Origin: an uncultured Pseudomonadales bacterium | GTDB lineage: Bacteria; Patescibacteriota; Microgenomatia; UBA1400; CAYXSR01 | Assembly (NCBI GenBank): GCA_964430265.1 | Contig: CAYSEI010000001.1 | Coordinates: 154,786 to 218,785 of the forward strand | Reading direction: 5' to 3' | DNA length: 64,000 nucleotides | In this document: in pieces, positions 2,575 through 63,638 of the stretch | How the letters are laid out: every line of letters starts with the position of its first letter | Position numbering within the stretch: the first letter of the stretch is position 1 | Program-made: the position numbers and the translations under genes | Notes under the pieces: generated by a model | The model's input: the letters and a program-made list of their open reading frames with translations, nothing else | Told to the model about the DNA's origin: nothing | The model's database searches: none

Positions 2575-3138
2575 ATGTTTACAGCAGATGAGTTACGGAA
2601 CGGAACCACTTTTGTATATAGGAATGATCCTTACAGGGTTGTAAAATACCGCCATAGTCATATTTCGCGTAGGGGTGCTAATTATAAGGTAAAAGCAAAA
2701 AATCTAAAGACGGGTTCAGTACAAACGTTTACATTTGGTTCCAAGGATAAATTTGAAGACGCATTTTTACAAAAAAAGAAAATGCAGTATTTATACAGTC
2801 AGGATGACTCGTTGGTATTAATGGATTTGAATGATTATCAGCAAAAACAACTGGACAAAAAGAAATTTGAAAAAGCTGCAAAGTTTTTAAAAGAAGGAGA
2901 AGAAGTATATGTTTGGATTTGGGATGATGAAATTTTGGAAATAGATTTGCCAACAGCGGTTGCTTTAAAAGTAGAAAAAGCACCTCCAGGTGTTAAAGGC
3001 GACTCAGCAACCGGGGCAACAAAAAAAGTGACTCTGGAAAATGGATTGGAAGTAAGAGTCCCGCTATTTATTAACAAAGGAGAAAAGATCTTGGTTGATA
3101 CGCGTAGTGAGGAATATTTGGAAAGATTTAAAGATTAA
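2575..3138 (+). CDS. efp: Elongation factor P
   Basis: EF-P signature regions: GDSATGATKKVTLENGLEVRVPLFINKGEKILVDTRSEEY and the N-terminal KNLKTGS loop. Confidence 0.9.
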   Translation: MFTADELRNGTTFVYRNDPYRVVKYRHSHISRRGANYKVKAKNLKTGSVQTFTFGSKDKFEDAFLQKKKMQYLYSQDDSLVLMDLNDYQQKQLDKKKFEKAAKFLKEGEEVYVWIWDDEILEIDLPTAVALKVEKAPPGVKGDSATGATKKVTLENGLEVRVPLFINKGEKILVDTRSEEYLERFKD

Positions 3139-8013: not shown

Positions 8014-8742
8014 ATGTCAGGACATTCAAAGTGGAGTAAAATCAAACACCAGAAAAGTGCAGAAGACAAGAAAAGAAGCAAGGTTTTTTCCAAGCTTTCT
8101 GAAGCAATATCAACTGCTGTAAAAGAGGGCGGTGGAGATGATCCGGAATTTAATGCCCGTTTGAAAATGGAAATTGAAAAAGCAAAAGAGGCAAATATGC
8201 CAAAAGAAAATATTCAAAGCGCAATTGACAGGGGTGCAGGAAGAGGAGAATACGGGAAAACAGAAAATATTGTTTATGAAGGTTTTGCACCTCACAAAGT
8301 TGCTCTGGTTATAAAATGCAATACTGATAATAGAAACAGAACTGCTTCAGAAATTAAATACTTGTTTGATAAAAATAACGGTTCTTTAGGTGCACCCGGA
8401 TCAAGCAGTTATCTTTTTGAGGAAAAAGGTATTTTGGAAATTTTAAAAAACAAGAATGGGGAAGAGCAGGCGTTGGAGTTAATGGAGATGAATATAGAAG
8501 ACTTTGAATTAAAAAAAGAAAAAATAAAAGTATATGTATTACCAAAAAATTTAAGCGATATTAAAAATAAAATTAAAGAGTCGGGTTTTGAAATAAAAAA
8601 AGCGGGGATAGTATTAGAACCAAAATCCACAATCACTCTTTCAGAAGATAAATATAAAAAGGTTAACAACTTCATAAATGACTTAAAAGAACACGATGAT
8701 GTTCAAATGGTCTTTAGTAATATTAAACTCATAAATGGATAA
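8014..8742 (+). CDS. yebC: YebC/PmpR family transcriptional regulator
   Basis: Diagnostic N-terminus MSGHSKWSKIKHQK and the EGGGDDPEFNARL block. Preceded by TGaTATAAT at 7999-8007, 6 nt before the ATG. Confidence 0.9.
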   Translation: MSGHSKWSKIKHQKSAEDKKRSKVFSKLSEAISTAVKEGGGDDPEFNARLKMEIEKAKEANMPKENIQSAIDRGAGRGEYGKTENIVYEGFAPHKVALVIKCNTDNRNRTASEIKYLFDKNNGSLGAPGSSSYLFEEKGILEILKNKNGEEQALELMEMNIEDFELKKEKIKVYVLPKNLSDIKNKIKESGFEIKKAGIVLEPKSTITLSEDKYKKVNNFINDLKEHDDVQMVFSNIKLING

Positions 8743-9505
8743 ACGTAAACGCTTTATTATTCAATCAGCTGTTTTATCAGCAGGTTTGTTAGCAATCCAA
8801 TCATTGTCATTGGAATGGCGGTATATTGCGGTTGCAGCCTTGTCGGTTCTGGCTTATTTTGCTTCTGCTTGGAGTTTAAGGGAGGCTTTAGTCAAGATTA
8901 GTTGGTTAACAGTTCTTCCGCTTACATTGCTTTACACGGCGGCTGTCAGTCTTTTCTATTTTCTTTTGCCTTCAAGCATTATTACCAGGATTGTGATTAT
9001 TTCTTTATTTGGAGTGGGTATGTATGCTTTACTTTTAACCAAAAATATTTTTCTGGTGGCGGCAGATAAAACTATTCAGCTTTTAAGAGCTGCCCAGGCG
9101 GTGGGATTTATAATTACTCTTATAACAGTTTTTTTTCTTTTTAACACAATTTTTTCGTTTAAACTAATTCCTTTAGAAAATAGTTTAATAAGCCTTGCTT
9201 TTGTGCCCTTTCTTGTTCTGTCTTCCTTGTGGAGTGTTTCTTTAAAAAAGTATATAGGGAAGAGGATAATAAATTATACTTTGGTTTTGGCTTGGTTAAT
9301 AGCCCAGCTAACCTTTTTTATTAGCTGTTGGCCTCTGTCAATAACTACCTCAGCCTTATTTTTAGTAAGCTATCTTTATGTAATTCTTGGAATTGTCCAA
9401 AACGCGATAATGGGAAAATTATTTAAAGATGTTTTAAAAGAATATCTTCGAGTTGCAATAATAATATTTATTTTAACTTTGTTTCTTGCAAATTGGACAC
9501 AATAA
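8735..9505 (+). CDS. Hypothetical polytopic membrane protein
   Basis: About 8 hydrophobic segments. No motif recognised. Confidence 0.4.
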   Translation: MDKRKRFIIQSAVLSAGLLAIQSLSLEWRYIAVAALSVLAYFASAWSLREALVKISWLTVLPLTLLYTAAVSLFYFLLPSSIITRIVIISLFGVGMYALLLTKNIFLVAADKTIQLLRAAQAVGFIITLITVFFLFNTIFSFKLIPLENSLISLAFVPFLVLSSLWSVSLKKYIGKRIINYTLVLAWLIAQLTFFISCWPLSITTSALFLVSYLYVILGIVQNAIMGKLFKDVLKEYLRVAIIIFILTLFLANWTQ

Positions 9506-43763: not shown

Positions 43764-43882
43764 TTACTCAATTTTACTGAAAAAAGGAAAGAATGGGTAA
43801 AAGAGAGCTGGCAAGCATTGAAAATGCTACCAGGGATATTAAAACGATCTTTATCAGTTTGATCTTTTTTTTCCTTTTCATT

Positions 43883-45073
43883 TTACTCCGTTAATTTTAT
43901 CCAACGATTTTTACCTACATTTATTATATCACCTTTTTTAACTTCAGTTTTACCTCTTTTTTTCACCTTTTCTTGGTTTATTTCCACGGCATTGTTTCTT
44001 ATCCACCTTTTAGCTTGGGATTTACTGTCAGTAAAACCGACTTCTACTAAAAGGTCTCTTAATTTCAGCGGATTTGCTGATAAATCCGCAATTGGAAAAG
44101 TTTCCATTTGACTCGGTAGATTATTGCCTTGAAAAACTTTTTCAAATTCTTTTTTGGCTTTTTTTGCTTTATCCTCGGAATGCAGCATTTTTACTATTTC
44201 AAATGCCAAATCCTTTTTTGCTTGCATTGGGTCTTTGTTAACCAATGATCGATATTTCTCTACCCTGTCTAAAGAAATAGTGGTAATTAATTTAAAGCAT
44301 GGTACAACCAATTCGTCAGGAAGACTCATGATTTGCCCGTAAAGCTCGTCTGCTGGGTTAGTAATATTTATTGCATTTCCTCCTGTTTTGCTAATCTTGG
44401 TTCCGTCGGATCCGACAAGAAGCTTTGTGGTTATAACAAACTTTTCCTTGTCCAGGATTTGTTTTTCCAGTTTTCTGCCGATCATCATATTAAACATCTG
44501 GTCCGTACCGCCGATTTCTGCATCCACTTCCATTGCTACGGAATCATATCCTTGTACCAGCGGATATAGAAACTCGTTTAAATATATTTCTCGGTTATTT
44601 TTTAATCTTTCCTGGAACATGTCTCTTTCAATCAACTGTTGTACGGTTAGCTGTTTTGCAAGTCCCAAAACATCGGCAAAATCAAGCTTTTCATTCCATT
44701 CAGAATTAAACTTTAGCTGTATTGGATTGTCGCCTGTAAAGTCCAGGATTAACCCGGCTTGTTCTTCATAAGTTTTGGCGTTTTCCAAAACTTGTTTCTT
44801 TGTCAAAGTTTTTCTGGCTGTTGTTTTACCGCTGGGGTCACCGATCATGCCGGTAAAATCACCGATTAAAAATATTACTTCATGTCCCATTTCCTGGAAT
44901 TGTTTTAATGTCAGTAATCCTACCAAATGACCAATATGTAAATTGGGTTTTGAAGGGTCAAAACCCTGGTAAATACGGATTTTTTTCTTTTTGCGCAGTT
45001 TTTCTTCCAGCTCTTTTTCTGAAGGATATATTTTTGCAATTCTTCTGGTTAACAGTTCTTTTATTTTATCCAT
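43883..45073 (-). CDS. tyrS: Tyrosine--tRNA ligase
   Basis: Class I HIGH motif PNLHIGHLVG, KMSKS variant KISKTGG, and a C-terminal S4-like domain. Confidence 0.9.
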   Translation of the reverse strand: MDKIKELLTRRIAKIYPSEKELEEKLRKKKKIRIYQGFDPSKPNLHIGHLVGLLTLKQFQEMGHEVIFLIGDFTGMIGDPSGKTTARKTLTKKQVLENAKTYEEQAGLILDFTGDNPIQLKFNSEWNEKLDFADVLGLAKQLTVQQLIERDMFQERLKNNREIYLNEFLYPLVQGYDSVAMEVDAEIGGTDQMFNMMIGRKLEKQILDKEKFVITTKLLVGSDGTKISKTGGNAINITNPADELYGQIMSLPDELVVPCFKLITTISLDRVEKYRSLVNKDPMQAKKDLAFEIVKMLHSEDKAKKAKKEFEKVFQGNNLPSQMETFPIADLSANPLKLRDLLVEVGFTDSKSQAKRWIRNNAVEINQEKVKKRGKTEVKKGDIINVGKNRWIKLTE

Positions 45074-45093
45074 TTGTGTTTCCTTTCTTAATT

Positions 45094-46182
45094 TTAGAAT
45101 AAACTAGCTGTTTTGTCTAATAATATGAAATTTTTTAAGATTTTGGCAAATGTAAACAAGCTGGGTAAATGGATTTTCTCTTTTTCACTGTGTGCTCCCG
45201 TGCCTTTAGGCGAAGTTATTATTACGGGAATTTTTAATTGTGAGAAAAATCTAGCGTCTGAAGCACCACATTCATTTACAAGTTTAATTTTTCTTTTTAA
45301 CTCTTTTTCCGCTTCATTTTTCCAGATATTAATAAATTCACTTTTTCTGGAAACCTGAAACAATAAACCTTTATCAATAAATTCCAGTTGACAGTCATTT
45401 TGAGCACATATTTTCTTAATTTTTTTGATCAAAAGACTATTTTCTGCTTTTTCTATAAGTCTAACGTCAAAAAAAGCTTTACTTTCCTCCGGAATCTGAT
45501 TAAAAGCTTTGCCGGCTTCAAGTTTTGTTAAGCACAAAGTATTGCTGTTTTTGTTGTTGTTTCTTTTTTGAAGAATTCTATTTATCACGGGGATTATTTC
45601 TTCCAGGGGGTTTTTTCCCCTCCACGGCTGTGATGCGTGAGCGGAAACGCCTTTTTTTGTGATGCAGAAATGCAAAGGCGCTTTTTGCAGTTTTACGATG
45701 TCAAAATTAATCTGTGAGTCGGGAATGACAACTACTTTACAATCTTTGAACTTCACAGCCAATTTTGCAGCACCGTTAAATCCTCCGATTTCCTCATCCG
45801 AATTAATCATCAGGGCAAGGGGCAGATCTGGCTTTTGTTTTAGAACCTTAATAAATGTAATTATTAAAGCGGCTAAAGGGCCTTTCATGTCAATTGCTCC
45901 GCGTCCCAGAATCCAGGCTTTTTTTATTTTAGGCTTAAACATTTTTTTACTTCCCGGAACAACGTCAATATGGCCGCACAAAACAAGTTTGGGTTTTTTC
46001 TTTGTCTTGGCAATTAAAGACAAAAATCCATTTATTTCACAAATCTTAATATTAATGTTTTTAAGATCTTTTCTTAATACTTCTTTTATCTTTATTAATG
46101 CTTTTTCAGTTTCTTTTTTGTTGCCTGTAACTGTATTCTGTTCAATCAGTTCCAAACAAAGTTTTTTTATCTTCTTGTTCAT
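45094..46182 (-). CDS. M20-family metallopeptidase / aminoacylase (ArgE/DapE-like)
   Basis: Metal-binding motifs LCGHIDVVPG and GRGAIDMKG, then NSDEEIGG. Confidence 0.65.
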   Translation of the reverse strand: MNKKIKKLCLELIEQNTVTGNKKETEKALIKIKEVLRKDLKNINIKICEINGFLSLIAKTKKKPKLVLCGHIDVVPGSKKMFKPKIKKAWILGRGAIDMKGPLAALIITFIKVLKQKPDLPLALMINSDEEIGGFNGAAKLAVKFKDCKVVVIPDSQINFDIVKLQKAPLHFCITKKGVSAHASQPWRGKNPLEEIIPVINRILQKRNNNKNSNTLCLTKLEAGKAFNQIPEESKAFFDVRLIEKAENSLLIKKIKKICAQNDCQLEFIDKGLLFQVSRKSEFINIWKNEAEKELKRKIKLVNECGASDARFFSQLKIPVIITSPKGTGAHSEKEKIHLPSLFTFAKILKNFILLDKTASLF

Positions 46183-47207
46183 ATTTCCTTTCTAAACAAA
46201 TTTTCTATTTTCATAATTGCTTGTTCCATTTGCGGAGAAAAGCAATCGGTTGCCAGTTCCACAGGAGCCAACAGAGTATCTTTTTTAAGCTTTCCCATTA
46301 AAAGGGTTAATGGTTTTCTCCAATCAAAACCGCAGGCAATAAAACCGCTTTCCATAAGTCTTTGGATTGAAGAAAAATTACTTTTTGTCAATTGAAGCGG
46401 TGCCAGTAAAAATTTATGTTTGGCTTCAGATAGTGCTTGAGAAAGTCTTTTTCCTTTTTTATCCGGAAGTAACACTGAAAATGGTCCTTGATTGCTTACG
46501 GAGAAAGTTGTTTGTCCTGCTTTTTCATTTGGTTCCTCAAATGAAATTTCTGTAAAAGGAAATAGAGATTGGGTAATTTTTATCAATGCTTCATAGTCGT
46601 TCAGTTGAACGGGTAGGGTAATTTTTTGAGGACAGGCAAATTTTTTCAGGATCGAGAAACAGAAAAATTCGTGTCTGTCCGGTCCTTTTGGCCCGGGATG
46701 ATGAAATGCAGGTAAAATAGCATGCGGTGTCATGCCAATATTTTTTATAGCAGTTGCTTGAGACCCTTGACCTCCTTCAATATCTTCAAAATCTGCTGAC
46801 AAGCGTATTTCAGCTGTTAAAGGTTTTGTCCTGCCCATGTGACTTTTTGCAGCTTCCATCATTAATATGCTTGCCTTTTTACCGTTTTCCGGATGATTTG
46901 CGGCTCTGCCGATTTCAACATTATCTTTATGTTGAACAAGAGCTGTACAAGCAGTAAATTCACCCAAATTATTTTGTAAAAACCAGGGTATAACTTTTTG
47001 ACTACGGATAGAGTCTTCTGTTTCCTCTATTGAAGGAAGAAGGTTGTGCCTACCGTAAACTGCAGAAAGTATCTGTGTTATTGCTTCTGCTGCTTGATCA
47101 TGCGGAATATCCCCGGGCATGATAATTTTATTATCTAAAGGGATTTCTTCCCTTTTTCTGCTAAGAGTATCCAGAAACTCTGGTTTACAATGGTTTAAAG
47201 TTTCCAT
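46179..47207 (-). CDS. Hypothetical 342-aa protein, first gene behind the putative T-box leader
   Basis: Unbroken ORF that overlaps the M20 gene start by 4 nt. No motif recognised. Confidence 0.5.
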   Translation of the reverse strand: METLNHCKPEFLDTLSRKREEIPLDNKIIMPGDIPHDQAAEAITQILSAVYGRHNLLPSIEETEDSIRSQKVIPWFLQNNLGEFTACTALVQHKDNVEIGRAANHPENGKKASILMMEAAKSHMGRTKPLTAEIRLSADFEDIEGGQGSQATAIKNIGMTPHAILPAFHHPGPKGPDRHEFFCFSILKKFACPQKITLPVQLNDYEALIKITQSLFPFTEISFEEPNEKAGQTTFSVSNQGPFSVLLPDKKGKRLSQALSEAKHKFLLAPLQLTKSNFSSIQRLMESGFIACGFDWRKPLTLLMGKLKKDTLLAPVELATDCFSPQMEQAIMKIENLFRKEI

Positions 47208-47500
47208 ATTGCCCCCTTAATTTACTAATAAAGGGGCGAAGAATGCGCGGTACCACCCTACTTCACTTTGTTAAAAGCCACAAAAAAACTCTGGTGTCAC
47301 CAGAGTTAAACAGCTTAACAAAGTCTTTTTTTGACATGCTCTGTTTCTAGTGTGACACATGTTAGCAATATCACGGTTGCAACCGTCAAGGCTTACTTTT
47401 TGATTCGGCCTTGCTGCTCCGGAGGGTATTTCCTAGAATTTATACGGCGGATCTTTCAGCAACCGTCCGCTCTCTGGTGTCACTAAATTCTATTTAGTTC
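47208..47500 (-). promoter_or_regulatory. Putative T-box riboswitch leader (translational type) for the hyp-M20-tyrS operon
   Basis: Minus-strand RNA contains UAGGGUGGUACCGCG (rc of 47255-47268). It can fold as an antiterminator: A1 AGGG/CCCU, bulge UGGUACC, A2 GCG/CGC. The alternative hairpin CGCCCCUUUAUUAGUAAAUUAAGGGGGC sequesters the SD AAGGGGG, 9 nt before the ATG at 47207. Upstream stem-loops include a perfect CUCUGGU-GAC-ACCAGAG hairpin. Confidence 0.5.
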
Positions 47501-47655
47501 TCCTCTTTCTATGCATTTGTCAATTGTAATTTAGTAGTTTAAACAAAAAGGATTTGCTTGTCAAATCCAGTTATTTAAAACAGAAGTAAAACCAGATAAT
47601 TATGAATGTTTAAAGGGTTGTATAAAAACATGGATTTTGCTAAACTAAACAGGAT

Positions 47656-50322
47656 ATGAGTTGGAAACGTACATGGAAACGACGCATCAGTAAGATAAAA
47701 TCAGGGATCTCCTTTAAAAAAGGCAAATGGAACAGGGCAAAAGTTATTAAAACCCTTGCTATTTTAGCCTTTTTGGGAGCTTTTACCCTGTTTTTTGCAA
47801 CTTTCATCCTTTTTGCCTGGTATGCAAAGGATCTTCCCAAGCCAAACAAAATTGTCAGGCATGAGGGTTTTGCAACCAAAATTTTTGACCGTGACGGCGA
47901 ACTGCTTTATGATGTTTTTGCAGATCAAAGACGTGTTCCTGTGGAAATTGATGAGGTTCCTGAAGATTTAAGGCATGCAACAATTGCAATTGAGGACAAA
48001 AATTTTTATGAACACAGCGGATTTGACCTTTTGGGTTGGGTACGTGCTCTTTACAGAATTGTAGTCTACCGCCGCTTGGAAGGTGGATCCACCTTAACCC
48101 AACAGCTTGTGAAAAATGTTTTGCTTTCTCCAAAAAGAACAATTGGCAGAAAAGTAAAAGAATTTGTTTTGGCGGTTCAAATTGAGAATAAATATACAAA
48201 AGACGAGATTTTGCAGATGTATCTTAATGAAGCTCCATATGGAGGAACTGCTTGGGGTGTTGAGGCAGCTGCGGAAATGTATTTTGGCAAACATGTTGCT
48301 GATCTGGATTTAGTTGAATCAGCTATACTCGCAGGATTGCCGCAAAGACCATCGTTTTATTCGCCTTACAGTGATCATCCGGATGCATGGAAAGGAAGAA
48401 CTCAACATGTTTTAAGAAGAATGCGTGAGGACGGATACGTTTCAAAGGAAAAGGAAGAGGAAGCTTTGGAAAAGCTTGATGAAGTTGATTTTGCCACTCC
48501 AAGCCAGGAAATGAAAGCCCCGCATTTTGTAATGTATGTTAAAAGACAATTGGAAGAAAAATACGGCAGAAGGTTGATTGAACAGGGAGGATTAAAAATA
48601 ACTACTTCCCTGGATTGGAAGCTTCAGGAAGAGGCTCAGGAAATTGTAAAAACAGAGATTGAAAAAGTTGAAGAACCACTCCATATTACCAATGGAGCAG
48701 CAATGGTAATGGATCCTACGACCGGTGAAATATTAAGTATGGTGGGTTCAAAAGATTTTTTTGCGGAAGATTATGACGGACAAGTTAATGTTACTCTTTC
48801 CAAGCGTCAGCCGGGATCCTCAATTAAGCCGATTACCTATGTAACCGCATTTAAAAAAGGATACAATCCCGCAACTATGATTGTGGATGCGGAAACACGC
48901 TTTTCCGGCGGTACGGGTGGAAAAGATTATGTTCCCAAAAACTATGATGGCAAATTCCATGGTCCTGTACAAGTCAGGCAAGCACTAGGTAGTTCTTTAA
49001 ATATTCCGGCAGTTAAGATGCTGGCAATGACAGGTTTGGAAAATGTTTTGCAAACTGCTTATGAAATGGGATTTGATTATTTAAAACCGACAGATGCAAC
49101 TATGAGAAGATTGGGACTTTCATTTACTTTGGGAGGCGGAGAGGTTAGGCTAATAGATATGGCTTCAGCCTACTCTACTTTTGCAAATAGTGGTAAAAAA
49201 GTAAGCCCGGTGTCGATTTTAAAAGTTGAAGACAGGCAAGGGAATGTATTGGAGGAATTTAAACCAATTAAAGGCGAGCAGGTTTTGTCACCCGGCGAAG
49301 CATATTTAATTACCGATATTTTATCCGACAACAATGCGCGATTATTGACTTTTGGACAAAACAGTCTTTTAAATATGCCCGGAAGAACAGTGGCGGTTAA
49401 GACCGGAACAACCGATGATATGCGTGATAACTGGGCAATCGGCTGGACGCCTAAGTTTATAACCGCAGTATGGGTTGGAAATAATGACAATTCTACCATG
49501 AAAAGAGTTGCTTCAGGAATCTCCGGGGCATCTCCAATTTGGAGACAGATTATGCTTGCCATTTTCCGGGAAAATCCGGTTAGGGAGTTTGAGGTCCCTG
49601 ATAATGTAATTAATCAGGAAGTTGATGTTATTTCCGGATATCCTGCACACGACGATTTTCCGTCAAGAAATGAATATTTTGTTAAAGGCACTATACCCCA
49701 AGGAGAAGATCCAATTCACAAGAAGATGAAGATTTGTAAAAGTGATAATAATAAATTAGCACCAAAAACATTAATTGAAAAAGGTGAATATGATGAAAAG
49801 GAATTTATAGTTTTAAAAGAAAACGATTCGGTAAGCGGAGACGGAAAAAACCGTTGGCAGGAAGGAATAAATAGCTGGATAGAAAATCAAGGAGATCAGC
49901 GTTATCACTACCCAACTGAATATTGTGATGCAGATCAAGAATTAATTGTAAAAATTAAAGACCCGGACGACAAGGAAAAAATTGACAGCAACGAAGTTAA
50001 AGTGGAAGCGGAAGTAATCAGTAACAAATCCGTTGATAGACTTGAAATTTATGTAAACGACGACAAAAAAGAAACCTTAAGAAGCAGGCCTTACAAAACT
50101 AATTTTGTATTATCCGAAGGAACATATGAAATAAAAGTGAAAGTTTATGACTCGGACGGAAATAAAGACGAGTCCAGTGTCAGAATTGGTGTTAAAAAAG
50201 AATGGGACTGGTCTCCGGATCCCTCACCTTCACCTGAGCCGACACCTGAACCGTCTCCGAATCCCTCGCCTTCTCCTGAACCAGCTGAACCGAGCCCTTC
50301 ACCTGAAGCAGCGGAAGATTAA
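47656..50322 (+). CDS. Class A penicillin-binding protein (PBP1A-type transglycosylase/transpeptidase) with C-terminal extension
   Basis: GT51 motifs EDKNFYEHSGFD and the RKVKEFVLA region. Transpeptidase motifs SGSSIKP (SxxK) and KTGTT. Also a ~200-aa C-terminal Ig-like region and a PSPEP-rich tail. Confidence 0.9.
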   Translation: MSWKRTWKRRISKIKSGISFKKGKWNRAKVIKTLAILAFLGAFTLFFATFILFAWYAKDLPKPNKIVRHEGFATKIFDRDGELLYDVFADQRRVPVEIDEVPEDLRHATIAIEDKNFYEHSGFDLLGWVRALYRIVVYRRLEGGSTLTQQLVKNVLLSPKRTIGRKVKEFVLAVQIENKYTKDEILQMYLNEAPYGGTAWGVEAAAEMYFGKHVADLDLVESAILAGLPQRPSFYSPYSDHPDAWKGRTQHVLRRMREDGYVSKEKEEEALEKLDEVDFATPSQEMKAPHFVMYVKRQLEEKYGRRLIEQGGLKITTSLDWKLQEEAQEIVKTEIEKVEEPLHITNGAAMVMDPTTGEILSMVGSKDFFAEDYDGQVNVTLSKRQPGSSIKPITYVTAFKKGYNPATMIVDAETRFSGGTGGKDYVPKNYDGKFHGPVQVRQALGSSLNIPAVKMLAMTGLENVLQTAYEMGFDYLKPTDATMRRLGLSFTLGGGEVRLIDMASAYSTFANSGKKVSPVSILKVEDRQGNVLEEFKPIKGEQVLSPGEAYLITDILSDNNARLLTFGQNSLLNMPGRTVAVKTGTTDDMRDNWAIGWTPKFITAVWVGNNDNSTMKRVASGISGASPIWRQIMLAIFRENPVREFEVPDNVINQEVDVISGYPAHDDFPSRNEYFVKGTIPQGEDPIHKKMKICKSDNNKLAPKTLIEKGEYDEKEFIVLKENDSVSGDGKNRWQEGINSWIENQGDQRYHYPTEYCDADQELIVKIKDPDDKEKIDSNEVKVEAEVISNKSVDRLEIYVNDDKKETLRSRPYKTNFVLSEGTYEIKVKVYDSDGNKDESSVRIGVKKEWDWSPDPSPSPEPTPEPSPNPSPSPEPAEPSPSPEAAED

Positions 50323-52358
50323 ACTTGTCCTTTTAACTCAGCGCCTGTTTTTTCAACATTTTTAACTATTTTTCTTCTTACATCTGTAATCATATTATCA
50401 CTGAGGTTTTGAGAAGGATGCTGGAATGTAATTTGATATGTTTGACTGTTATTATAAGTGGTCTTTAATTTCACATCTTTAACAAGGTTGCTGGTTTTAT
50501 TTATATTATCAATAATATCTTTTGCATAAGTTTCGGGTGGAACAATAAAAGTTAAATCCTCAATTACCGGTGGATATTTAGGCAGGGGTGAAAATGTTTT
50601 TAGGTTGTTGGCAAGCTTTGCTATTTTAACAAAATCCAAATAAGCACATGTTACAGAATTAAGGTCATAATTTTTACTAATATTCTTTTTTAGCATACCT
50701 ATGTGTCCAAGAACTTCTTTGTTGCTCAGGATTAGAGCTGTTTTGTTAGTGCTCCAGATGTTGTCATCTACATCTAACGGTTCAAAGCTGAATTTAATGT
50801 TTAGATTGTCCAATAAGGCTTCACAAATACCTTTTGTCTGTAGATAGTCTTTTTCACTAAATTGATTTCTAATAATTATTAACATTTGTCTTTCCCGCGG
50901 CAATTTATTTTTTCGTGGTAAATAAACATTGGAGATCTCAAAAAGTTTAATTTCTCTTTTTTGTTGTTTGTTGTTTTGCAACACTGAAAGTAAAGAAGGA
51001 ATTAAGTTAGTTCGCATATATACCCATTCTTCGGAAAGAGGGTTTAGTAATTCTAAATGTGATTTTGGTTCAAGATTGGTTTTTAAAATATCTTTTTCTG
51101 ACTGTAAAGAATTGGTATATGTTTCTATTAATCCCCAACTGCAAAGTTTATGCTTGACTTTATCTTCCCAATAAAAACTTGAGTCCGGTTTTTTAGGGAC
51201 TTTTTTTAATTCAGGAAGTTCACTGGGTAGGTCAAAATACCCATATATTCTTGCAATTTCTTCAACAATATCCACAGGGATGTCAATATCGTTTTTTCTC
51301 CAGGAAGGGACAGTAACTGTTATCTCACTTTTATTTTTTGAAGTAATGTTTAAACCTAAAGAATTGAGTATCTTTTCTACTTTAGATATTTGAATTGAGA
51401 CGCCCAGATACTCTTTTATTAATTGAAGTTTAAGCTTAATTTCTTTTTCTTTGTATGGTTCCGGATATAAATCAATAATATTGCTGGCGACTTTAGCATT
51501 TGCAACTTTTTTTAATAATTCAATTCCTTTTAACAAAGTAGGCATTACCAATTCCGGGTCTACCTGTTTTTCAAATAAAGTAGCTGCTTGGGTGCGGTGT
51601 GCAAGTTCCATGGAAGTTTTTCTAATATGTTTTGGTTCATAATTTTGTACAAATAAAAGTATTTTTTTTGTGTTTTTATCTACTCTGCTGTTTTCTCCAC
51701 CCATGATTCCGCAAAGGTCAATTAATTTGCCTGCACCGTCCTCAATAACAATGTCTCCGCCCATCAGCTTATGTGTTTTCCCGTCCAGGGTTTTAATTTT
51801 CTCGCCTTTTTTTGATTCTCTGAGAATCATTTTATTTTTTGCAATTTTTTCATAGTCAAAAACATGCACTGGTTGTCCCATTTCATGCATTAAGTAGTTT
51901 GATATATCAATAACGTTGTTTAAAGATCTATAACCTACTTTTTCCAACTTATCTTTTATCTGCTTTGGGGATTCTTTGACAAAAACATTTTCCAATACTA
52001 CTGCAGTAAATCTGGAACAAAGTTTTTGATCTTTAATCTTCACATTCAACTCCGGTATTTCTTTTTTTACTTTTAACTTATTGGTTGTGAGTTGTAATTC
52101 TTTATAGGGGTCTTGAGTTAGGAGTGAATCTTTATTAAATCTGTTTAAAATTGTATTTGCTTCTCTGGCAACACCCATAATTGACATTGCATCCGCCCGG
52201 TTGGTAGTAATTTCAATATCATAAACAAAGTCGTCTCCGACTTTTTCAATCATTTCTACCGAAGGACCGCAAAGTGAAACAAGTTCACCGATTTTATGTG
52301 GTTTAACATTTGTTTTTAAATATTCTTTTAGCCAAGAATGTGGTATAAGTATATTCAT
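50319..52358 (-). CDS. pheT: Phenylalanine--tRNA ligase beta subunit
   Basis: Typical N-terminus MNILIPHSWLKEYL, B3/4 and B5 domains, and position immediately downstream of pheS. Confidence 0.85.
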   Translation of the reverse strand: MNILIPHSWLKEYLKTNVKPHKIGELVSLCGPSVEMIEKVGDDFVYDIEITTNRADAMSIMGVAREANTILNRFNKDSLLTQDPYKELQLTTNKLKVKKEIPELNVKIKDQKLCSRFTAVVLENVFVKESPKQIKDKLEKVGYRSLNNVIDISNYLMHEMGQPVHVFDYEKIAKNKMILRESKKGEKIKTLDGKTHKLMGGDIVIEDGAGKLIDLCGIMGGENSRVDKNTKKILLFVQNYEPKHIRKTSMELAHRTQAATLFEKQVDPELVMPTLLKGIELLKKVANAKVASNIIDLYPEPYKEKEIKLKLQLIKEYLGVSIQISKVEKILNSLGLNITSKNKSEITVTVPSWRKNDIDIPVDIVEEIARIYGYFDLPSELPELKKVPKKPDSSFYWEDKVKHKLCSWGLIETYTNSLQSEKDILKTNLEPKSHLELLNPLSEEWVYMRTNLIPSLLSVLQNNKQQKREIKLFEISNVYLPRKNKLPRERQMLIIIRNQFSEKDYLQTKGICEALLDNLNIKFSFEPLDVDDNIWSTNKTALILSNKEVLGHIGMLKKNISKNYDLNSVTCAYLDFVKIAKLANNLKTFSPLPKYPPVIEDLTFIVPPETYAKDIIDNINKTSNLVKDVKLKTTYNNSQTYQITFQHPSQNLSDNMITDVRRKIVKNVEKTGAELKGQV

Positions 52359-53395
52359 TAAAACTGCCTCAAAAACTTAATATCATTGCTGTATAGCAAG
52401 CGTAAATCATCAACTTCCAAGCCTTCTTTCATTAGATATGTTCTTTCCACTCCCCAGCCAAAAGCAAAACCGCTGTACTTATTGGGATCAAGACCGCCTG
52501 CTTTTAAAACATTGGGATGAACCATTCCAGCGCCTCCCAATTCATGCCAGCCGCTCTTGCAAGTTTTACATCCTTTACCCAAGCAAAGCGGACAGTTAAT
52601 GTCAACTTCAAAAGATGGTTCGGTAAATTCAAAATTAAACGGACGCAAGCGTGTTTTTCTACCTTTTCCGTAAAAGTTTTGGGCAAAATAATCGGTTACT
52701 CCCTTAAGGTGGGCAATACTTATATTTTTATCAATCACTAATCCTTCAAACTGATGAAACATTGTTGTATGTGTAACATCTTGTTGTCTGCGGTAACATT
52801 TAGCAATATTAATCATTCGGATTGGCGGTTTTTTGAGTCGTTGCATTTCCCTAGGTTGACCTGAGGAAGTATGGGGTGTTAAAACCATTTTACCAAGCTT
52901 TGGGTGTTGCGGAGCATCAATAAAGTATGTTTCCCATTCGTCTCTTGCAGGATGGTCCTTGGGCATGTTTAATGCTTCAAATGCATACCAATCCCATTCA
53001 ACTTCCGGGTATCTGGCGCGGATAAATCCAATTTGTTTAAAAATCTCGCTAATTTCATTGATTGCTTGAGTAACTAAATGCAGATGTCCCTGCGAAGGTT
53101 TGATACCGGGTTTGGTAACGTCAAACCATTTATCCGTAGTTTTCTTTTCCAAGCGCTTTTTTTTGGAGATTATTGCTTTATTTAAGGTTTTTTTAATATT
53201 ATTTAGTGTTTTTCCAGCCTCTCCTCTATCTTCCGGTTCTAGTTCTGGTATTTTCTGGGTGAGCTGGTTTATTTTACCTTTTCTTCCGAGAATAGATGTT
53301 TCCAGTTCATTAAGTTCTTCAAGGTTACCAACATCTTCAATTAAAGCAAGCGTTTCATTTTTAAAATTGTTAAGTTGTTTTTTTTCAAGTATCAT
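52358..53395 (-). CDS. pheS: Phenylalanine--tRNA ligase alpha subunit
   Basis: Class II motifs: PKDHPARDEWETYFID, FRPSYFPFTEPS-like FNFEFTEPSFEVD, and GWGVERTYLM. Confidence 0.9.
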   Translation of the reverse strand: MILEKKQLNNFKNETLALIEDVGNLEELNELETSILGRKGKINQLTQKIPELEPEDRGEAGKTLNNIKKTLNKAIISKKKRLEKKTTDKWFDVTKPGIKPSQGHLHLVTQAINEISEIFKQIGFIRARYPEVEWDWYAFEALNMPKDHPARDEWETYFIDAPQHPKLGKMVLTPHTSSGQPREMQRLKKPPIRMINIAKCYRRQQDVTHTTMFHQFEGLVIDKNISIAHLKGVTDYFAQNFYGKGRKTRLRPFNFEFTEPSFEVDINCPLCLGKGCKTCKSGWHELGGAGMVHPNVLKAGGLDPNKYSGFAFGWGVERTYLMKEGLEVDDLRLLYSNDIKFLRQF

Positions 53396-54588: not shown

Positions 54589-56337
54589 TTATTGTTTTTT
54601 CTCAATCTCTTTTTTTATTTTGCTTTTAAACTCTTTCCAGCTCATGGATCCCAGGCGGCCTTGTTTACGGTGTCTGACCGCAACTTTATCAGCTTCCTCT
54701 TCCCTACTGCCGATAATCAGCATATAAGGGATTTTTTGTTCTTCCGCTTCTTTAATCTTTTTTTGCATACTCTCGGATCTGGAATCAACTTCTACCCTAA
54801 TTCCTTCTTTTTTTAGTAAGGCTGCTTTTTCCTGTGCATATTCAAGATTATCTTCGGTAATTGGGATAATTACTGTTTGAGTTGGTGACAGCCAAACCGG
54901 GAAATTACCGCCGGTGTGTTCAATATATATTCCCAAAAATCTTTCCAAAGATCCTAATAAAGCGCGGTGGATTACGAATGGTTCTTGTGCTTGTCCGTTG
55001 CTGTCAATATATTCCATGTTAAACCTTTTTGGCAGATTAAAGTCAATTTGGATAGTGGCAAGCTGCCATCTTCTATCCATGGAATCAACTGCATCAATAT
55101 CTATTTTGGGTGCATAAAATGCTGCACCGCCAACATCGGTTTCATAATCAGAAACATTAATTTTCTTTAAAGCTTTTCTCAAAGTTTCTTCCGCTTGCCC
55201 CCATCCTTTGTTGCTGCCAAAATATTTGTCGATATTTTCCGGGTCTCTGGTTGAGAGCTTGAATATCAAATCCTCCAATCCCAGAGTTTTATAAATATAT
55301 TGGGTCAGTTTTAAAGCGTCAATTACTTCTTTTTCCAGTTGTTTGGGAGTGCAGATTATATGGGCATCGTCTTGTGTAAAAGCACGCGGACGTGTTAAGC
55401 CGTGTAGTTCCCCCGATTTTTCGTACCTGTAAACTGTTCCCATTTCCGTGTATCTGACCGGAAGGTCTCGATAACTTATTATTTCATGTTTGTACATTTT
55501 TACATGGAAGGGACAGTTCATTGGTTTAAGCCGGTATTTTTCTTTATCTACTTCCAAGGATCCATACATGCTTTCCGAATAAAATTCCAAGTGTCCGGAA
55601 TGTTCCCATAGCTTTTCCCTGCCTATATGTGGGGTTGAAACCAGCTGGTAACCTTCATCTATATAAGTATTTAAAGCAAATTGCATTAATTGGTGTCTGA
55701 TAAACGCACCTTTTGGCAGATACAATGGCAGGCCCTGCCCTACTTCATTGTCAAACATAAAAAGCTTAAGTTTTTTACCAATTCTGCGATGGTCTCTTTT
55801 TTTTGCTTGTTCAAGTTTTTCCAAATATTTGTCCAATTCGGCTTGGGAAGCAAAAGCGGTTCCGTAGATCCGGGTAAGCATTTTGTTTTTTTCATCTCCG
55901 TGCCAGTATGCACCGGCAATAGATAAAAGCTTAAATGCTTTTATTTTTCCGGTTGATTTGATGTGCGGGCCTTTGCAAAGGTCTACAAACTGATCACCAA
56001 CCCAGTAAACCGTAGCTTTTTCTCCTTCTTTTTCTATTTCCTCAAGCCATTCCTGTTTGTAAGGATTGTTTTTAAAAATGTCTCTGGCTTTGTCTATTTC
56101 TATTTCTTCTTTTCTAATTTCCAAGTCAGCATTAATAATTTTCTGCATTTCCTTTTCTATTTTGGGAAAGTCATTTTCCGATACTTCTTCACCATTTGGG
56201 TCAAAGTCAAAATAAAAGCCTTCATCTGTTGCCGGACCCATTGCCATTTTAATATCTGGATATAATCGCAGCATAGCCATGGTTAATATGTGTTCACAAG
56301 AATGTCTGATTTTTTCTAATTCATTATTTTTTTCCAT
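54589..56337 (-). CDS. thrS: Threonine--tRNA ligase, short form lacking the N-terminal TGS domain
   Basis: Begins at the editing-domain HSCEHIL (HxxxH). Class II catalytic motifs and a C-terminal anticodon-binding domain. 582 aa. Confidence 0.9.
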   Translation of the reverse strand: MEKNNELEKIRHSCEHILTMAMLRLYPDIKMAMGPATDEGFYFDFDPNGEEVSENDFPKIEKEMQKIINADLEIRKEEIEIDKARDIFKNNPYKQEWLEEIEKEGEKATVYWVGDQFVDLCKGPHIKSTGKIKAFKLLSIAGAYWHGDEKNKMLTRIYGTAFASQAELDKYLEKLEQAKKRDHRRIGKKLKLFMFDNEVGQGLPLYLPKGAFIRHQLMQFALNTYIDEGYQLVSTPHIGREKLWEHSGHLEFYSESMYGSLEVDKEKYRLKPMNCPFHVKMYKHEIISYRDLPVRYTEMGTVYRYEKSGELHGLTRPRAFTQDDAHIICTPKQLEKEVIDALKLTQYIYKTLGLEDLIFKLSTRDPENIDKYFGSNKGWGQAEETLRKALKKINVSDYETDVGGAAFYAPKIDIDAVDSMDRRWQLATIQIDFNLPKRFNMEYIDSNGQAQEPFVIHRALLGSLERFLGIYIEHTGGNFPVWLSPTQTVIIPITEDNLEYAQEKAALLKKEGIRVEVDSRSESMQKKIKEAEEQKIPYMLIIGSREEEADKVAVRHRKQGRLGSMSWKEFKSKIKKEIEKKQ

Positions 56338-56573: not shown

Positions 56574-57242
56574 TTAGCCTTTTTGTGTGACCATGTATCT
56601 TTCGTGGCTGAGCATATATTTGGTGCCGGATTTTTTGACATTACCCCAATAATGGGATTTTTTGCTATTTCGGTTCTGCCAAGTCTGCATCCAGGTTTTT
56701 GAATCTGCAATTTGTTTTCTGGCAAGTATAACAATTTGTTTAATGTGGTCAAGAAAATTTAGATGATATACTCCGGGATCAACTATTTCCTGTTTGGTAG
56801 CTTTTTTAACCTCTTTATCCAATTCATTCGTCTCTTGTGCAAGCTTTTTTAATTCTTCCTGCAGCAACTTAATTTGCTGTTCAATTTCCTTATCCCGTTT
56901 GCTTTTTACTGCTTTTTCCTGCTCTCTTTTACTTTCAAATCTCTTTCTTTCCCTATATTTGATTTGTTCGTCTCGTGATTTTAAATACTCTTCAAAATCA
57001 AAAGCTGGTTCGGAGTTGTCCCTTTGTTTGTTTTCAAATACAGTTTGTTTTCCGGAATGGCCGCTGATTTGTTCCAGTGCATTTTTAGCGGTTCCGGAAG
57101 TGACTTCTTTGGTTTGTTTTTTAACCGAATTTCCCAAATCTTTTAAAGCTTCAATAAAATTGGCCGGTTTGTCACTCCCGCCCTTCTTTTTTTTCTGCTT
57201 TGAGAAATGATTAAAATGGTTAAATGGATCTTTGTTATTCAT
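56574..57242 (-). CDS. Hypothetical Lys/Glu-rich coiled-coil protein
   Basis: Long ORF with a charged coiled-coil centre and a conserved-looking C-terminus (HYWGNVKKSG). No motif recognised. Confidence 0.4.
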   Translation of the reverse strand: MNNKDPFNHFNHFSKQKKKKGGSDKPANFIEALKDLGNSVKKQTKEVTSGTAKNALEQISGHSGKQTVFENKQRDNSEPAFDFEEYLKSRDEQIKYRERKRFESKREQEKAVKSKRDKEIEQQIKLLQEELKKLAQETNELDKEVKKATKQEIVDPGVYHLNFLDHIKQIVILARKQIADSKTWMQTWQNRNSKKSHYWGNVKKSGTKYMLSHERYMVTQKG

Positions 57243-61444: not shown

Positions 61445-62242
61445 TTAGCTGGGGTTATAAGCTCTTTGAATTGCGGCTTTATGTGCTTGCCATTCAGATT
61501 TATCATTCAAAGGTGTTAGTTTATCAATCTGATATTTACTTTTTAAAGCCTGATAAATTAAAAAGTCAGCCAAGTGGGGATTTTTCGGCAGGATAGGTCC
61601 GTGCAAATATGTGCCAACAACATTTTTAAAAACTGCACCTTCAAAATTATCACTGCTGTTGTTTCCGTATCCTTTTTCTGCGATACCCAAAGGCTTTAAT
61701 TTGTCATATTTTTTATCTTCGTTGTTTTGGCTGCTGGTATTTAAATATGTATTACCTGAATGATTTTCAAACCCTACTAGTTTGTAATCCTCTGCTTTGG
61801 GATAAACATGCTTTACTCTTTTTTTTATATCTTCTGACAAAGAAACAACAATGTTTCCGATTTTTCTTTTATTGCCTGCAACAGTGTAATAGTCAATTAA
61901 GCCTATGCCGGGTATTTTTGCTTCAGTATTAGTTTGAAAGTATTTACCCAATAATTGATAAGTTCCACAAATTGCTAGAAAAGGCTTGTCTTTCGCTATT
62001 TCTTGCTTTATTAATTCGGATTGTTTTTTGAAATCCTTTGACACAATATCCTGCTGCTGGTTCTGTCCACCCCCACCAAAATACAGGTCGCATTTAATTG
62101 TCTTTTTTTGTCCGGGGTTAATCTCAACTACTTCAACTTCAATATTACGCCATTCACAACGTTTTACTAAAGTAATAATGTTTCCTCTATCTCCGTAAAT
62201 ATTTAAAAGATTTGGGTAAAAATGTCCAATAAATAATTTCAT
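61445..62242 (-). CDS. gatD: Lipid II isoglutaminyl synthase glutaminase subunit GatD (CobQ-like GATase)
   Basis: N-terminus MKLFIGHFYPNLLNIYGDRGNI, Cys nucleophile region AICGTYQLLG, and position immediately downstream of murT. Confidence 0.8.
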   Translation of the reverse strand: MKLFIGHFYPNLLNIYGDRGNIITLVKRCEWRNIEVEVVEINPGQKKTIKCDLYFGGGGQNQQQDIVSKDFKKQSELIKQEIAKDKPFLAICGTYQLLGKYFQTNTEAKIPGIGLIDYYTVAGNKRKIGNIVVSLSEDIKKRVKHVYPKAEDYKLVGFENHSGNTYLNTSSQNNEDKKYDKLKPLGIAEKGYGNNSSDNFEGAVFKNVVGTYLHGPILPKNPHLADFLIYQALKSKYQIDKLTPLNDKSEWQAHKAAIQRAYNPS

Positions 62243-62243
62243 G

Positions 62244-63638
62244 CTATTCAGTCCACCTTTTGTGAGTTAAATTCCATTTATTTAATATCTTTCTTGTTTC
62301 AAGCATTGCTGTATATGTAGGAAAAATAATTAAATGTTTAGTCGAACTTTTTTTATAACTTTTTAAGTTCTTCTCTAGGTCTTTACTTATTTGAAGTATA
62401 TTCTTTTTGTATTCAAAGTCAGAGTATTTAATTCTTAGTTGTAAATCATCTACTCTTCTTCCGGATAAGTAGATTTTATTTACATTTTTAAACTGGTTTA
62501 AATAATTAAAGTTGGCATCCCAAATCCAGGAAACATCTTTGCCATCAGCAATTAAATCATTTAATACAAACATTAATGCTATTTGTTTTTCTTTAAAAAA
62601 CAAAAGTGAGGTTTTCAAGGATTGGTTTAAGGCTATCGGATTTTTTGTCAAGATAATTGTTATTTTCTTATTTCCCCATTTTACTGTTTCAAAGCGTCCA
62701 AATGGCAGAGTGAAAGTATCTAATCCTTTTATAATAAATTCTTTTTCAATATTCAGTGAAGATGCTGTGGAAACAGCTGCTAAAGCATTGTAGATATTGT
62801 AAATTCCCGGTGCTTTTATACTGACTTCAAATTCACTTTTATTAGCAACTATTTGCAAAGTGGATTTATTTATTGATTCTATTTTGGCTTTTTTGCAATA
62901 GACTGTTGGTTTTGGCTGGTTTTTTTTGCATTTTGGACAGGAATAGATTCCAAGGTGTGAGAAAAATGTTTTCGTATATTTTAGGTTTGTCATGCAATCC
63001 AAACAAAATATAGAGTCTGCAGCATGTTCAATATTTTGTTTACCTAGTGATTTATCACGAATTCCATAGTAGACTATTTTTTTATCCAGTTTATTACCTA
63101 ATGAGGCAACTCTGGGGTCGTCAGAATTAAGAACAACAGTGAGATCTTTATTGTATTTACTAAATGCTTTTTGCCATTTTTTAGCTAAAGTATCAATTTC
63201 CCCGTAGCGGTCCAGCTGGTCACGGAAAAGGTTTGTTAAAACTATTAACTTTGGAGTGAGCTCCTTAAGTGCAAGAGGTACTACCGCTTCATCAACTTCC
63301 CAAACTCCAATTACTTTTTTGTTGCTATTAAGTAACATTATATGTTTTATAATTGTTGAAGCAATTCCCCTCAAAAGATTAGATCCGGAGCGGTTATGGA
63401 TTACATTATATCCGGACTCTTTAATTATTGAAGAAATCATTCTGGAAGTGGTGGTTTTCCCGTTTGTTCCACTGATTAAAACTGAATATTCCAGTTTGCT
63501 GCTTAGAATCCTAATTATGCCGGGTTCAATTTTTAAAGCAATTAGTCCGGGAGCCGCTCCCCCTTCTTTATTAAACAGCCTGAGGATATAGAAGCTAAGT
63601 TTGGAAAGAAATATTGCAAAAAAAAGTTTAGTTTTCAC
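62244..63638 (-). CDS. murT: Lipid II isoglutaminyl synthase MurT (Mur-ligase family)
   Basis: Mur ligase P-loop ISGTNGKTTTSRMI, the Cys4 ribbon CLDCMTNL...CPKCK, and a DUF1727-like C-terminal domain. Confidence 0.8.
   Translation of the reverse strand: MKTKLFFAIFLSKLSFYILRLFNKEGGAAPGLIALKIEPGIIRILSSKLEYSVLISGTNGKTTTSRMISSIIKESGYNVIHNRSGSNLLRGIASTIIKHIMLLNSNKKVIGVWEVDEAVVPLALKELTPKLIVLTNLFRDQLDRYGEIDTLAKKWQKAFSKYNKDLTVVLNSDDPRVASLGNKLDKKIVYYGIRDKSLGKQNIEHAADSIFCLDCMTNLKYTKTFFSHLGIYSCPKCKKNQPKPTVYCKKAKIESINKSTLQIVANKSEFEVSIKAPGIYNIYNALAAVSTASSLNIEKEFIIKGLDTFTLPFGRFETVKWGNKKITIILTKNPIALNQSLKTSLLFFKEKQIALMFVLNDLIADGKDVSWIWDANFNYLNQFKNVNKIYLSGRRVDDLQLRIKYSDFEYKKNILQISKDLEKNLKSYKKSSTKHLIIFPTYTAMLETRKILNKWNLTHKRWTE

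Follow-up and report, generated by a model that had tools for sequence, protein, structure and literature searches.

A predicted tyrosine-specific T-box precedes an operon for tyrosyl-tRNA synthetase, an M20 deacylase and a new tyrosine-linked protein family in a CPR-type bacterium

A stretch of 64,000 nucleotides of contig CAYSEI010000001.1 (assembly GCA_964430265.1; "the window" below means the whole of this stretch) carries on its minus strand an operon in which a T-box leader is followed by genes for a 342-residue protein of unannotated family, here called X, an M20 metallo-hydrolase and a tyrosyl-tRNA synthetase (TyrRS, gene tyrS). Comparison of sequences confirms the leader as a genuine, tyrosine-specific T-box, and X marks a new tyrosine-linked protein family with a predicted enzymatic role. 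The T-box, the M20 enzyme and TyrRS belong to known families; new are the X family, its coupling to tyrosine sensing and several variations in regulation. Literature searches gave no description of the X family, and nothing on T-boxes in bacteria of the candidate phyla radiation (CPR) or on an arrangement of T-box, GNAT, M20 and tyrS. The elements of the operon are the following.

47229..47520, minus strand: T-box leader, specific for tRNA-Tyr (RF00230, full model 1-219, 106.9 bits against a gathering threshold of 93, E = 1.3e-22)
47426..47428, minus strand: specifier codon UAC (Tyr) in the Stem I specifier loop, assigned by position and comparison
47246..47259, minus strand: conserved T-box sequence AGGGUGGUACCGCG, from the RF00230 match and the leader alignment
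46179-47207, minus strand: open reading frame (ORF) of X, 342 aa, unannotated family
45094-46182, minus strand: M20 metallo-hydrolase, 362 aa, of the ArgE/DapE/LysK deacylase type (PF01546 and PF07687)
43883-45073, minus strand: TyrRS, 396 aa, bacterial type with a C-terminal S4-like domain (TIGR00234)

An earlier reading of this DNA from its letters alone (the sequence-only reading) had taken the leader for a putative T-box, and the covariance score, the UAC specifier and homologous leaders in relatives bear this out. The specifier loop runs GGAAA-UAC-C and is followed by the closing helix CUCC, with UAC at the "+0" position, 1 nt before the helix. Under the frame rule of the T-box database TBDB a single nucleotide of the bulge follows the codon, and 99% of the Tyr specifiers in that database are UAC (PMC7778990). 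We aligned seven leaders, those of the window and of the related loci L001, L003, L004, L005, L012 and L016; UAC is invariant among them, as are GAA-N-UAC-CCU and GGUGGUA, and the base before UAC is A or U. The specifier is read as UAC, and AUA (Ile) was rejected, because the preceding base varies in the relatives while UAC is fixed. The leader of a further locus, L014, likewise has UAC as its specifier and contains UGGU. In the window this UGGU bulge lies at 47252-47255 and would pair with the terminal ACCA of uncharged tRNA-Tyr; this agrees with the discriminator A of the tRNA-Tyr genes in L004 and L014. On prediction and comparison, which together make up the support for regulation by tRNA-Tyr charging, it is well supported that the T-box senses this charging and that the operon would be on when tRNA-Tyr is uncharged.

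The three genes are co-directional, and the coordinates of the sequence-only reading, with a 4-nt overlap and a 20-nt gap, were confirmed. The stop codon of X shares the ATGA at 46179-46182 with the start of the M20 gene, the gap at 45074-45093 lies between the stop of M20 and the start of tyrS, and a purine-rich Shine-Dalgarno (SD) sequence stands ahead of all three starts; the genes look like one translationally coupled unit. The synthetase scores 362 bits with TIGR00234 (cut-off 113.8) and also matches PF00579 and PF22421/PF01479, and its HIGH and KISKT motifs can be read in the translation; the equivalog model, the HIGH/KMSKS motifs and the S4-like C-terminal domain all agree with a bacterial-type TyrRS.

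Comparison was made over 15 distinct X loci including the window (L007 equals L001 and L010 equals L006; L015 is close to L014 and L018 to L017), and their gene content was cross-checked by tblastn; one search for related loci yielded just 1 genome locus and 4 metagenome loci. The linkage of the 342-aa gene to tyrS held up in these relatives: tyrS is part of the X cluster in 10 of the 12 loci with a visible flank, and X is linked to a Tyr sensor as well. The arrangement recurs in 14 independent loci besides the window, and chance adjacency was rejected on this count. Linkage persists down to 21-24% identity in X (L012 and L013). The synthetase next to X is of the bacterial type in the window, L003, L005, L012 and L017, and of the archaeal type in L001, L002 and L006 (NF006330, 357-387 bits); for L008 and L009 the archaeal type was assigned from tblastn, in which the enzymes are 67-69% identical to that of L001. 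By this comparison X has stayed beside tyrS through a replacement of the TyrRS type.

L001 8099-9196; L002 6998-8116; L006 6977-8104; L008 1387-2475; L009 1669-2817: archaeal-type tyrS

The sensor ahead of X has also been exchanged in some lineages. A T-box with a UAC specifier lies upstream of X in eight loci (window, L001, L003, L004, L005, L012, L014 and L016). None was found in L002, L006 and L008, and here X-tyrS is preceded by short ORFs with clustered Tyr codons (YYY, YYYY, YYFYY) followed by a GC hairpin and a T-run. The Tyr-rich leader peptides of these three loci are MKTHFSSTYYYFQL, MKNKSKLARQVSYYYYQLLY..., MKNKKFLIKQTGYYYYQLLYGGSIF and MKKFTVTSQYYFYYSKLS...; L002 and L006 each have two attenuators in tandem, and a perfect TTGACA-16-TATAAT promoter stands ahead of the leader peptides of L006, a locus from Candidatus Roizmanbacteria.

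L006 5588-5860; L002 5730-5975; L008 170-345: Tyr leader-peptide attenuators (clustered Tyr codons, hairpin and T-run)

They look like classical ribosome-mediated Tyr attenuators, and share with those of pheST, trp and his the short ORF, here with three to four clustered Tyr codons, the GC hairpin and the T-run; unlike them they are Tyr-specific, occur in CPR hosts and occupy the place that a T-box holds in sister lineages. Two unrelated devices that respond to tRNA-Tyr charging, the T-box and the leader-peptide attenuator, are thus predicted to govern X-tyrS units. As is established for T-box and attenuation regulons, what such devices control usually serves to increase the supply of the cognate charged tRNA.

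A tRNA-Tyr gene is found within the cluster in four loci. It is a tRNA-Tyr(GUA) placed between the T-box and the first protein gene in L004, L012 and L014, and lies nearby in L017.

L004 1340-1731; L012 121-524; L014 2751-3080: Tyr T-box directly upstream of tRNA-Tyr(GUA)

A T-box so placed would control the tRNA species that it senses. The start codon of X in L004 is only 2 nt past the 3' end of the tRNA, so that there is no SD sequence for X; L012 has the order T-box, tRNA-Tyr, M20, X, TyrRS. The T-box of L014 is followed by tRNA-Tyr, X and M20 with no tyrS, and the Tyr signal therefore appears to be directed at X and M20 themselves. This T-box (2751-2962) scores only 39 bits and has an ultrashort Stem I, GGAGG-AAAUAA-UAC-A-CCCUCC. 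The L014 tRNA-Tyr (3007-3080) is 74 nt long with a C1-G72 pair and a short variable arm, archaeal/eukaryal-like; that of L017 (5767-5838) is also short, at 72 nt, but has G1-C72.

Individual X loci hold further genes. L017 5767-14464, and similarly L018, has the order tRNA-Tyr, a 500-aa protein resembling lactate/malate dehydrogenases, X, M20, a group II decarboxylase dependent on pyridoxal phosphate, and two tandem TyrRS genes of the bacterial type; the decarboxylase is split into two ORFs and matches MfnA, PanP and TyrDC weakly. In L002 a class IV aminotransferase (8170-8997) follows tyrS; it falls between branched-chain and D-amino-acid transaminases, below both cut-offs, and may point to D-amino-acid or keto-acid metabolism in the vicinity of X. 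The short L013 contig shows no tyrS, and a 175-aa ORF resembling P-loop kinases (2193-2720) overlaps the end of X there, with a weak match to GntK/IdnK-type gluconokinases (E = 4e-7, below cut-off).

The X protein of the window has no match in Pfam, in NCBIfam or, by phmmer, among PDB sequences. A search of 5.8 billion clustered sequences returned 9 homologues, a full HMMER scan of 1.84 billion representatives put the family at 63 clusters at 50% identity, and a further word-indexed protein search added 2 members; no homologue is informatively named or assigned to a Pfam domain. When 34 members were scanned with Pfam, the only matches were to GNAT (GCN5-related N-acetyltransferase) models and below significance, the best with E = 0.008, in 2 members, and a PDB profile search with the family gave one weak match, to 3e0k, the GNAT domain of N-acetylglutamate synthase (NAGS; E = 0.25). 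The sequence-only reading saw no recognizable motif in the protein; this stands at the level of sequence, but structure prediction gives a GNAT fold and a GNAT-like second domain. The AlphaFold2 model built on the family alignment (pLDDT 88.8, pTM 0.86) has an N-terminal GNAT fold at about residues 20-187, in which the elements follow the GNAT order beta1-alpha1-alpha2-beta2-beta3-beta4-alpha3-beta5-alpha4-beta6-beta7, and a GNAT-like C-terminal domain at about residues 190-342. Foldseek supports the GNAT fold (E ~1e-5). The second domain is a partial GNAT, with some 73 residues aligned, and hhalign of the N-domain against the C-domain revealed no internal repeat. X lacks what defines a dupli-GNAT, namely two complete GNAT domains forming the active site together with the family signatures.

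Many of the top structural matches are N-acetyltransferases of free amino acids or antimetabolites: the tabtoxin resistance protein, BAR/PAT, ArsN, YncA, PA4866 and ACIAD1637. X differs from phosphinothricin acetyltransferase/BAR, the tabtoxin resistance protein, YncA/MddA, PA4866 and ArsN, which are single-domain proteins of about 170 aa with Pfam GNAT signatures, in its additional domain, in having no Pfam match and in the low identity (10-16%) of the structural alignments. Acetyltransferases of the RimI/RimL/RimJ type, NatA and Ard1 are also among the matches. Eleven residues are invariant in an alignment of 34 X sequences (L47, Y51, H54, E98, R101, R135, F168, H170, E180, F182 and G293); all except G293 belong to the N-domain, and they include two Arg, two Glu and two His. 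In the model they would lie on the alpha1-alpha2 region and on strands beta4-beta7, the site of acceptor binding and catalysis in GNATs, and the charged ones among them are such as would be expected for a small charged acceptor. Between beta4 and alpha3 the family has a Gly-rich loop (G109 and G111-G113; G-x-G-G-G), its positions being Gly in 20-29 of the 34 sequences, which in the weak match to 3e0k (E = 0.25) aligns with the loop that binds the CoA pyrophosphate (motif A, Q/R-x-x-G-x-G/A). X is probably a catalytic, divergent GNAT-fold protein with an extra, degenerate GNAT-like domain, and its donor is likely an acyl-CoA. Where the sequence-only reading suggested that the protein could be an amino-acid-salvage enzyme in a module that liberates an amino acid, the predicted fold makes it more likely that X forms an amide bond than that it frees an amino acid.

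The aminoacyl-tRNA-dependent enzymes Sbb17, FemX and FemA score nearly as high against X as these acetyltransferases, in alignments limited to one domain (145-164 residues). In a rival role X, like Fem, MprF or Sbb17, would transfer tyrosine from Tyr-tRNA-Tyr to a cell-envelope or small-molecule acceptor, fed by co-expressed tyrS and, in some genomes, by a tRNA-Tyr gene of its own, while M20 would trim or recycle the product. The size and layout of X, two GNAT-like domains in about 340 aa, are those of FemX; a tRNA-Tyr gene directly precedes X or M20 in L004, L012 and L014 and is nearby in L017, which also has the tandem TyrRS genes; and the divergent neighbor of the operon in the window and in L003 is a gene for a penicillin-binding protein (PBP). 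Against such a transferase, tyrosine starvation would induce a consumer of Tyr-tRNA, which is counter-productive, and the adjacent TyrRS resembles a housekeeping copy, near recG, nusB, rnc and pheST. The protein itself also fits poorly: all invariant residues but one are in the N-domain beside a Gly-rich loop of the CoA type, which to our knowledge Fem-type enzymes lack, the C-domain is only a partial GNAT, and X has no family-level sequence match to FemAB or any other family. We regard a role of this kind as unlikely.

The matches to RimI, NatA and Ard1, many of them protein N-alpha-acetyltransferases, together with the position of X beside tyrS and tRNA-Tyr genes, would also suit an enzyme that modifies TyrRS or tRNA-Tyr, or else acetylates Tyr-tRNA-Tyr in the manner of GNAT toxins, and so tunes translation, with M20 recycling N-acetyl-Tyr. 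X is linked, however, to two unrelated types of TyrRS, contrary to a specific protein target, no antitoxin-like partner accompanies it, and the invariant pocket, rich in Arg and Glu, would better suit a small zwitterion. Among the roles considered for X we give this one very little chance.

The M20 enzyme matches PF01546 (8e-22) and PF07687 (4e-12). It scores best with the NCBIfam models of DapE (148 bits, cut-off 284), LysK (106, cut-off 288) and ArgE (75, cut-off 460), and misses equivalog identity with all three by a wide margin; its nearest PDB sequence is the uncharacterized 2rb7, followed by DapE entries. Eight X-linked M20 proteins from different loci have H71, D98, E130/E131 and H331, which we read as metal ligands, invariant, and the lid motifs GKSAHxS, DxR and GASDAR are invariant in the same set. 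From its sequence the M20 protein is an intact enzyme of the deacylase type, forming a distinct subfamily within the ArgE/DapE branch. The gene adjoins X in 10 of the 15 loci and the two ORFs overlap in eight of these ten, in the order X-M20 or, in L012 and L013, M20-X. In L005 the M20 gene beside X (1599-2664) is split into ORFs of 147 and 221 aa, which could be due to a frameshift, a pseudogene or an assembly error.

The sequence-only reading offered peptides or N-acyl amino acids as substrates of M20. The latter fit better, the protein being of the ArgE/DapE/LysK type, and the former fit less well, as it does not resemble the di- and tripeptidases PepV and PepT. This bears on a scavenging role, in which M20 frees tyrosine from environmental peptides or N-acyl-Tyr and X is an accessory salvage enzyme or a specificity subunit, not an acyltransferase. 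Induction of the module by tyrosine starvation and the intact active-site residues of M20 are in keeping with it, the overlap of the X and M20 ORFs, whichever of them comes first, suggests that their products form a stoichiometric complex, and the organism looks like a reduced CPR bacterium that is likely to be auxotrophic. X is nevertheless the constant partner and M20 the dispensable one, and X keeps catalytic-looking invariant polar residues at the GNAT catalytic place. The simple scheme of the earlier reading, scavenging of peptide tyrosine followed by charging, fails to explain why a protein of acyltransferase fold should be the most constant member (five loci have no M20), and we consider scavenging highly doubtful as the role of the module.

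The interpretation that we prefer, tentatively and at somewhat less than even odds, is by analogy that X N-acylates a free amino acid of the tyrosine type and that M20 turns the L-acyl form back into L-Tyr, the two being a couple that supplies TyrRS. When charging of tRNA-Tyr is low, the T-box or the leader-peptide attenuator would switch on X-M20-tyrS; X would use acyl-CoA to N-acylate the free tyrosine-type amino acid, and the coupled M20 would strip the acyl group from the L-tyrosine form. X and M20 would then act to protect and deprotect, in the style of ArgA/ArgE, or to sort enantiomers or analogues, in that of the pathway of GNAT, N-succinylamino acid racemase (NSAR) and M20, with a larger or purer pool of L-Tyr for charging as the result. 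TyrRS has no editing domain and accepts D-Tyr, and in a concrete form of the scheme D-Tyr or another tyrosine analogue would be trapped as its N-acyl derivative while L-Tyr is recovered; alternatively the couple may complete a salvage route of which the middle step is unlinked. Such a couple accounts for the constant link of X and tyrS across two TyrRS types, for the optional M20 and for induction on falling charging.

Known systems offer two parallels. ArgA/ArgE and DapD/DapE follow the logic of N-acyl protection at the start of a pathway and deacylation by M20 at its end. The present module recalls them in that M20 scores best to DapE, ArgE and LysK and that the weak match of the X family is to the GNAT domain of NAGS; it differs from them in missing the equivalog cut-offs, in having no intermediate enzymes linked and in regulation that is specific for Tyr and not for Arg or Lys. 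A described pathway for D-to-L conversion combines a GNAT succinyltransferase, a racemase and an M20 desuccinylase (bioRxiv 10.1101/2022.03.03.481873). A GNAT-fold protein is paired with an M20 deacylase in both cases, and the enzymes of the pathway act on free amino acids; X, on the other hand, is a two-domain protein without sequence similarity to known GNAT families, and the module is Tyr-specific and controlled by tRNA charging. No NSAR (enolase superfamily) was found in the neighborhood of the window operon or in the 14 related loci, the search being of the loci only.

Several points weigh against an acylation couple. Acylation followed by deacylation is by itself a futile cycle, and in the 15 loci we found no racemase, lyase or oxygenase to drive it in one direction. 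Five loci keep X beside tyrS with no adjacent M20, so that deacylation is not obligatory, at least locally. In L017 no T-box or leader peptide was detected; its tandem TyrRS genes, and the tRNA-Tyr genes of four clusters, would suit a tRNA-dependent role as well. X matches no GNAT model of Pfam or NCBIfam significantly, and the Gly-rich loop is degenerate in the X of the window (GKKAS).

The nature of the sensors admits yet another role, immunity to a natural TyrRS inhibitor that mimics tyrosyl-adenylate: X would serve as the N-acetyltransferase of the inhibitor's aminoacyl amine and M20 as the hydrolase that cleaves it, and the T-box would induce both together with extra TyrRS. MccE and RimL N-acetylate the aminoacyl amine of processed microcin C in this way, and RimI/RimL/RimJ-type enzymes are among the fold matches of X. 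Inhibition of TyrRS raises uncharged tRNA-Tyr and would trigger T-box and attenuators alike, and throughout X goes together with tyrS or with Tyr sensors. Duplicated aminoacyl synthetases are a layout seen in resistant-paralogue arrangements, which the pair of TyrRS genes in L017 recalls. We know of no TyrRS inhibitor for these organisms, however, there is no transporter or mobile-element context, and deep vertical conservation with two TyrRS types suggests core metabolism and not accessory resistance; we judge immunity to be quite unlikely.

Function can be read reliably from T-box and leader-peptide regulons, because their contents serve the supply of one charged tRNA. Two sensors of tRNA-Tyr, both types of TyrRS and sometimes the tRNA-Tyr gene itself converge here on one unannotated family, usually with an M20 enzyme, and because of this convergence X is a well-defined and cheaply testable candidate for a step in the handling of tyrosine, in episymbiotic, genome-reduced hosts whose amino-acid economy has been little explored. 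In its boldest form, which we put forward as improbable though consequential, X would give CPR bacteria a previously undescribed, Tyr-specific step in translation supply or quality control, either with M20 as a filter for enantiomers or analogues or as a tRNA-Tyr-dependent transferase with a T-box-controlled tRNA-Tyr of its own. If true, either form would involve a T-box regulating the very tRNA that it senses. For T-box biology the gains are the occurrence in CPR bacteria, an apparent swap from a transcriptional to a translational platform, replacement by leader peptides and a T-box directly upstream of a tRNA gene.

Two hairpins are predicted in the leader region, the first of which suggests the swap of platform.

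47211..47237, minus strand: alternative 9-bp helix GCCCCUUUA/UAAGGGGGC, predicted by RNAfold, competing with the antiterminator-type helix
47280..47307, minus strand: terminator-like hairpin AACUCUGGUGACACCAGAGUU followed by U7, at the Stem III position and 5' of the T-box sequence

The 3' strand of the antiterminator-type helix can pair into the alternative helix instead, which covers the SD sequence AAGGGGG (47212-47218), and AAUAUG follows the stem directly, with no U-run. RNAfold of 47196-47262 yields this same hairpin, at -19 kcal/mol for the whole 67-nt fold, an energy no different from that of shuffled sequences (z = -1.14; 22 of 200 shuffles fold as well). A classical antiterminator/terminator pair was not found in the window leader, where the helix contains the SD sequence and has no U-run. 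In L001, L003, L004, L005 and L012 a terminator stem with U6-7 stands at the corresponding place. Because the competing helix hides the SD sequence and lacks a U-run, we read the switch of the window as translational, probably acting by SD sequestration, and it looks as if the expression platform had been switched between terminator and SD sequestration among close relatives. The SD-sequestering platform resembles that of actinobacterial translational T-boxes.

A similar internal hairpin with a U-run (U4-U8) is found in the leaders of L003, L004, L005, L012, L014 and L016. Its position upstream of the T-box sequence, on the 5' side, puts it beyond control by the acceptor end, and it was rejected as a regulated terminator; the Stem III hairpin and its U-run may be a pause site. 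Compared with the Tyr T-box of the Bacillus subtilis tyrS type, the window leader shares the Stem I specifier loop, UAC, Stem III, the AGGGUGGUACCGCG box, UGGU and the tyrS target. It differs in its CPR-type host, in the insertion of X and M20 ahead of tyrS, in the SD-sequestering helix without a U-run and in the extra hairpin and U-run at the Stem III position; in some relatives, moreover, the leader directly precedes a tRNA-Tyr gene.

Two further features flank the operon.

47536..47564, minus strand: promoter candidate TTGACA-17 nt-TAAACT, sigma-70-like (consensus scan, 10 of 12 matches)
43774..43881, minus strand: predicted ORF of 35 aa, MKRKKKIKLIKIVLISLVAFSMLASSLLPILSFFQ, between tyrS and recG, with a basic N-terminus and a hydrophobic stretch

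The promoter candidate is a pattern match only, and its position agrees with the start of the T-box model at 47520. A scan of the window gave no terminator-like site between tyrS and recG; transcription of tyrS may run on into recG and the 35-aa ORF may be co-transcribed, its membership of the unit being uncertain. In L003, too, tyrS is followed by recG.

The Rfam scan gave the leader of the Tyr operon as the sole T-box of the 64-kb window; pheT and pheS (50319-53395, minus strand) and thrS (54589-56337, minus strand) have no T-box or other Rfam leader. The neighbors recG, nusB, rnc, pheST, thrS, trigger factor, murT/gatD, type IV pilus genes and a class A PBP are a gene content that would fit a reduced, CPR-like genome. 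A protein with DUF5660 is encoded at 56574-57242. At 61445-63638 on the minus strand lies a pair of genes for a MurT-like ligase and an amidotransferase of the CobB/CobQ type that resembles GatD; the pair suggests that the organism amidates the stem peptide of its peptidoglycan.

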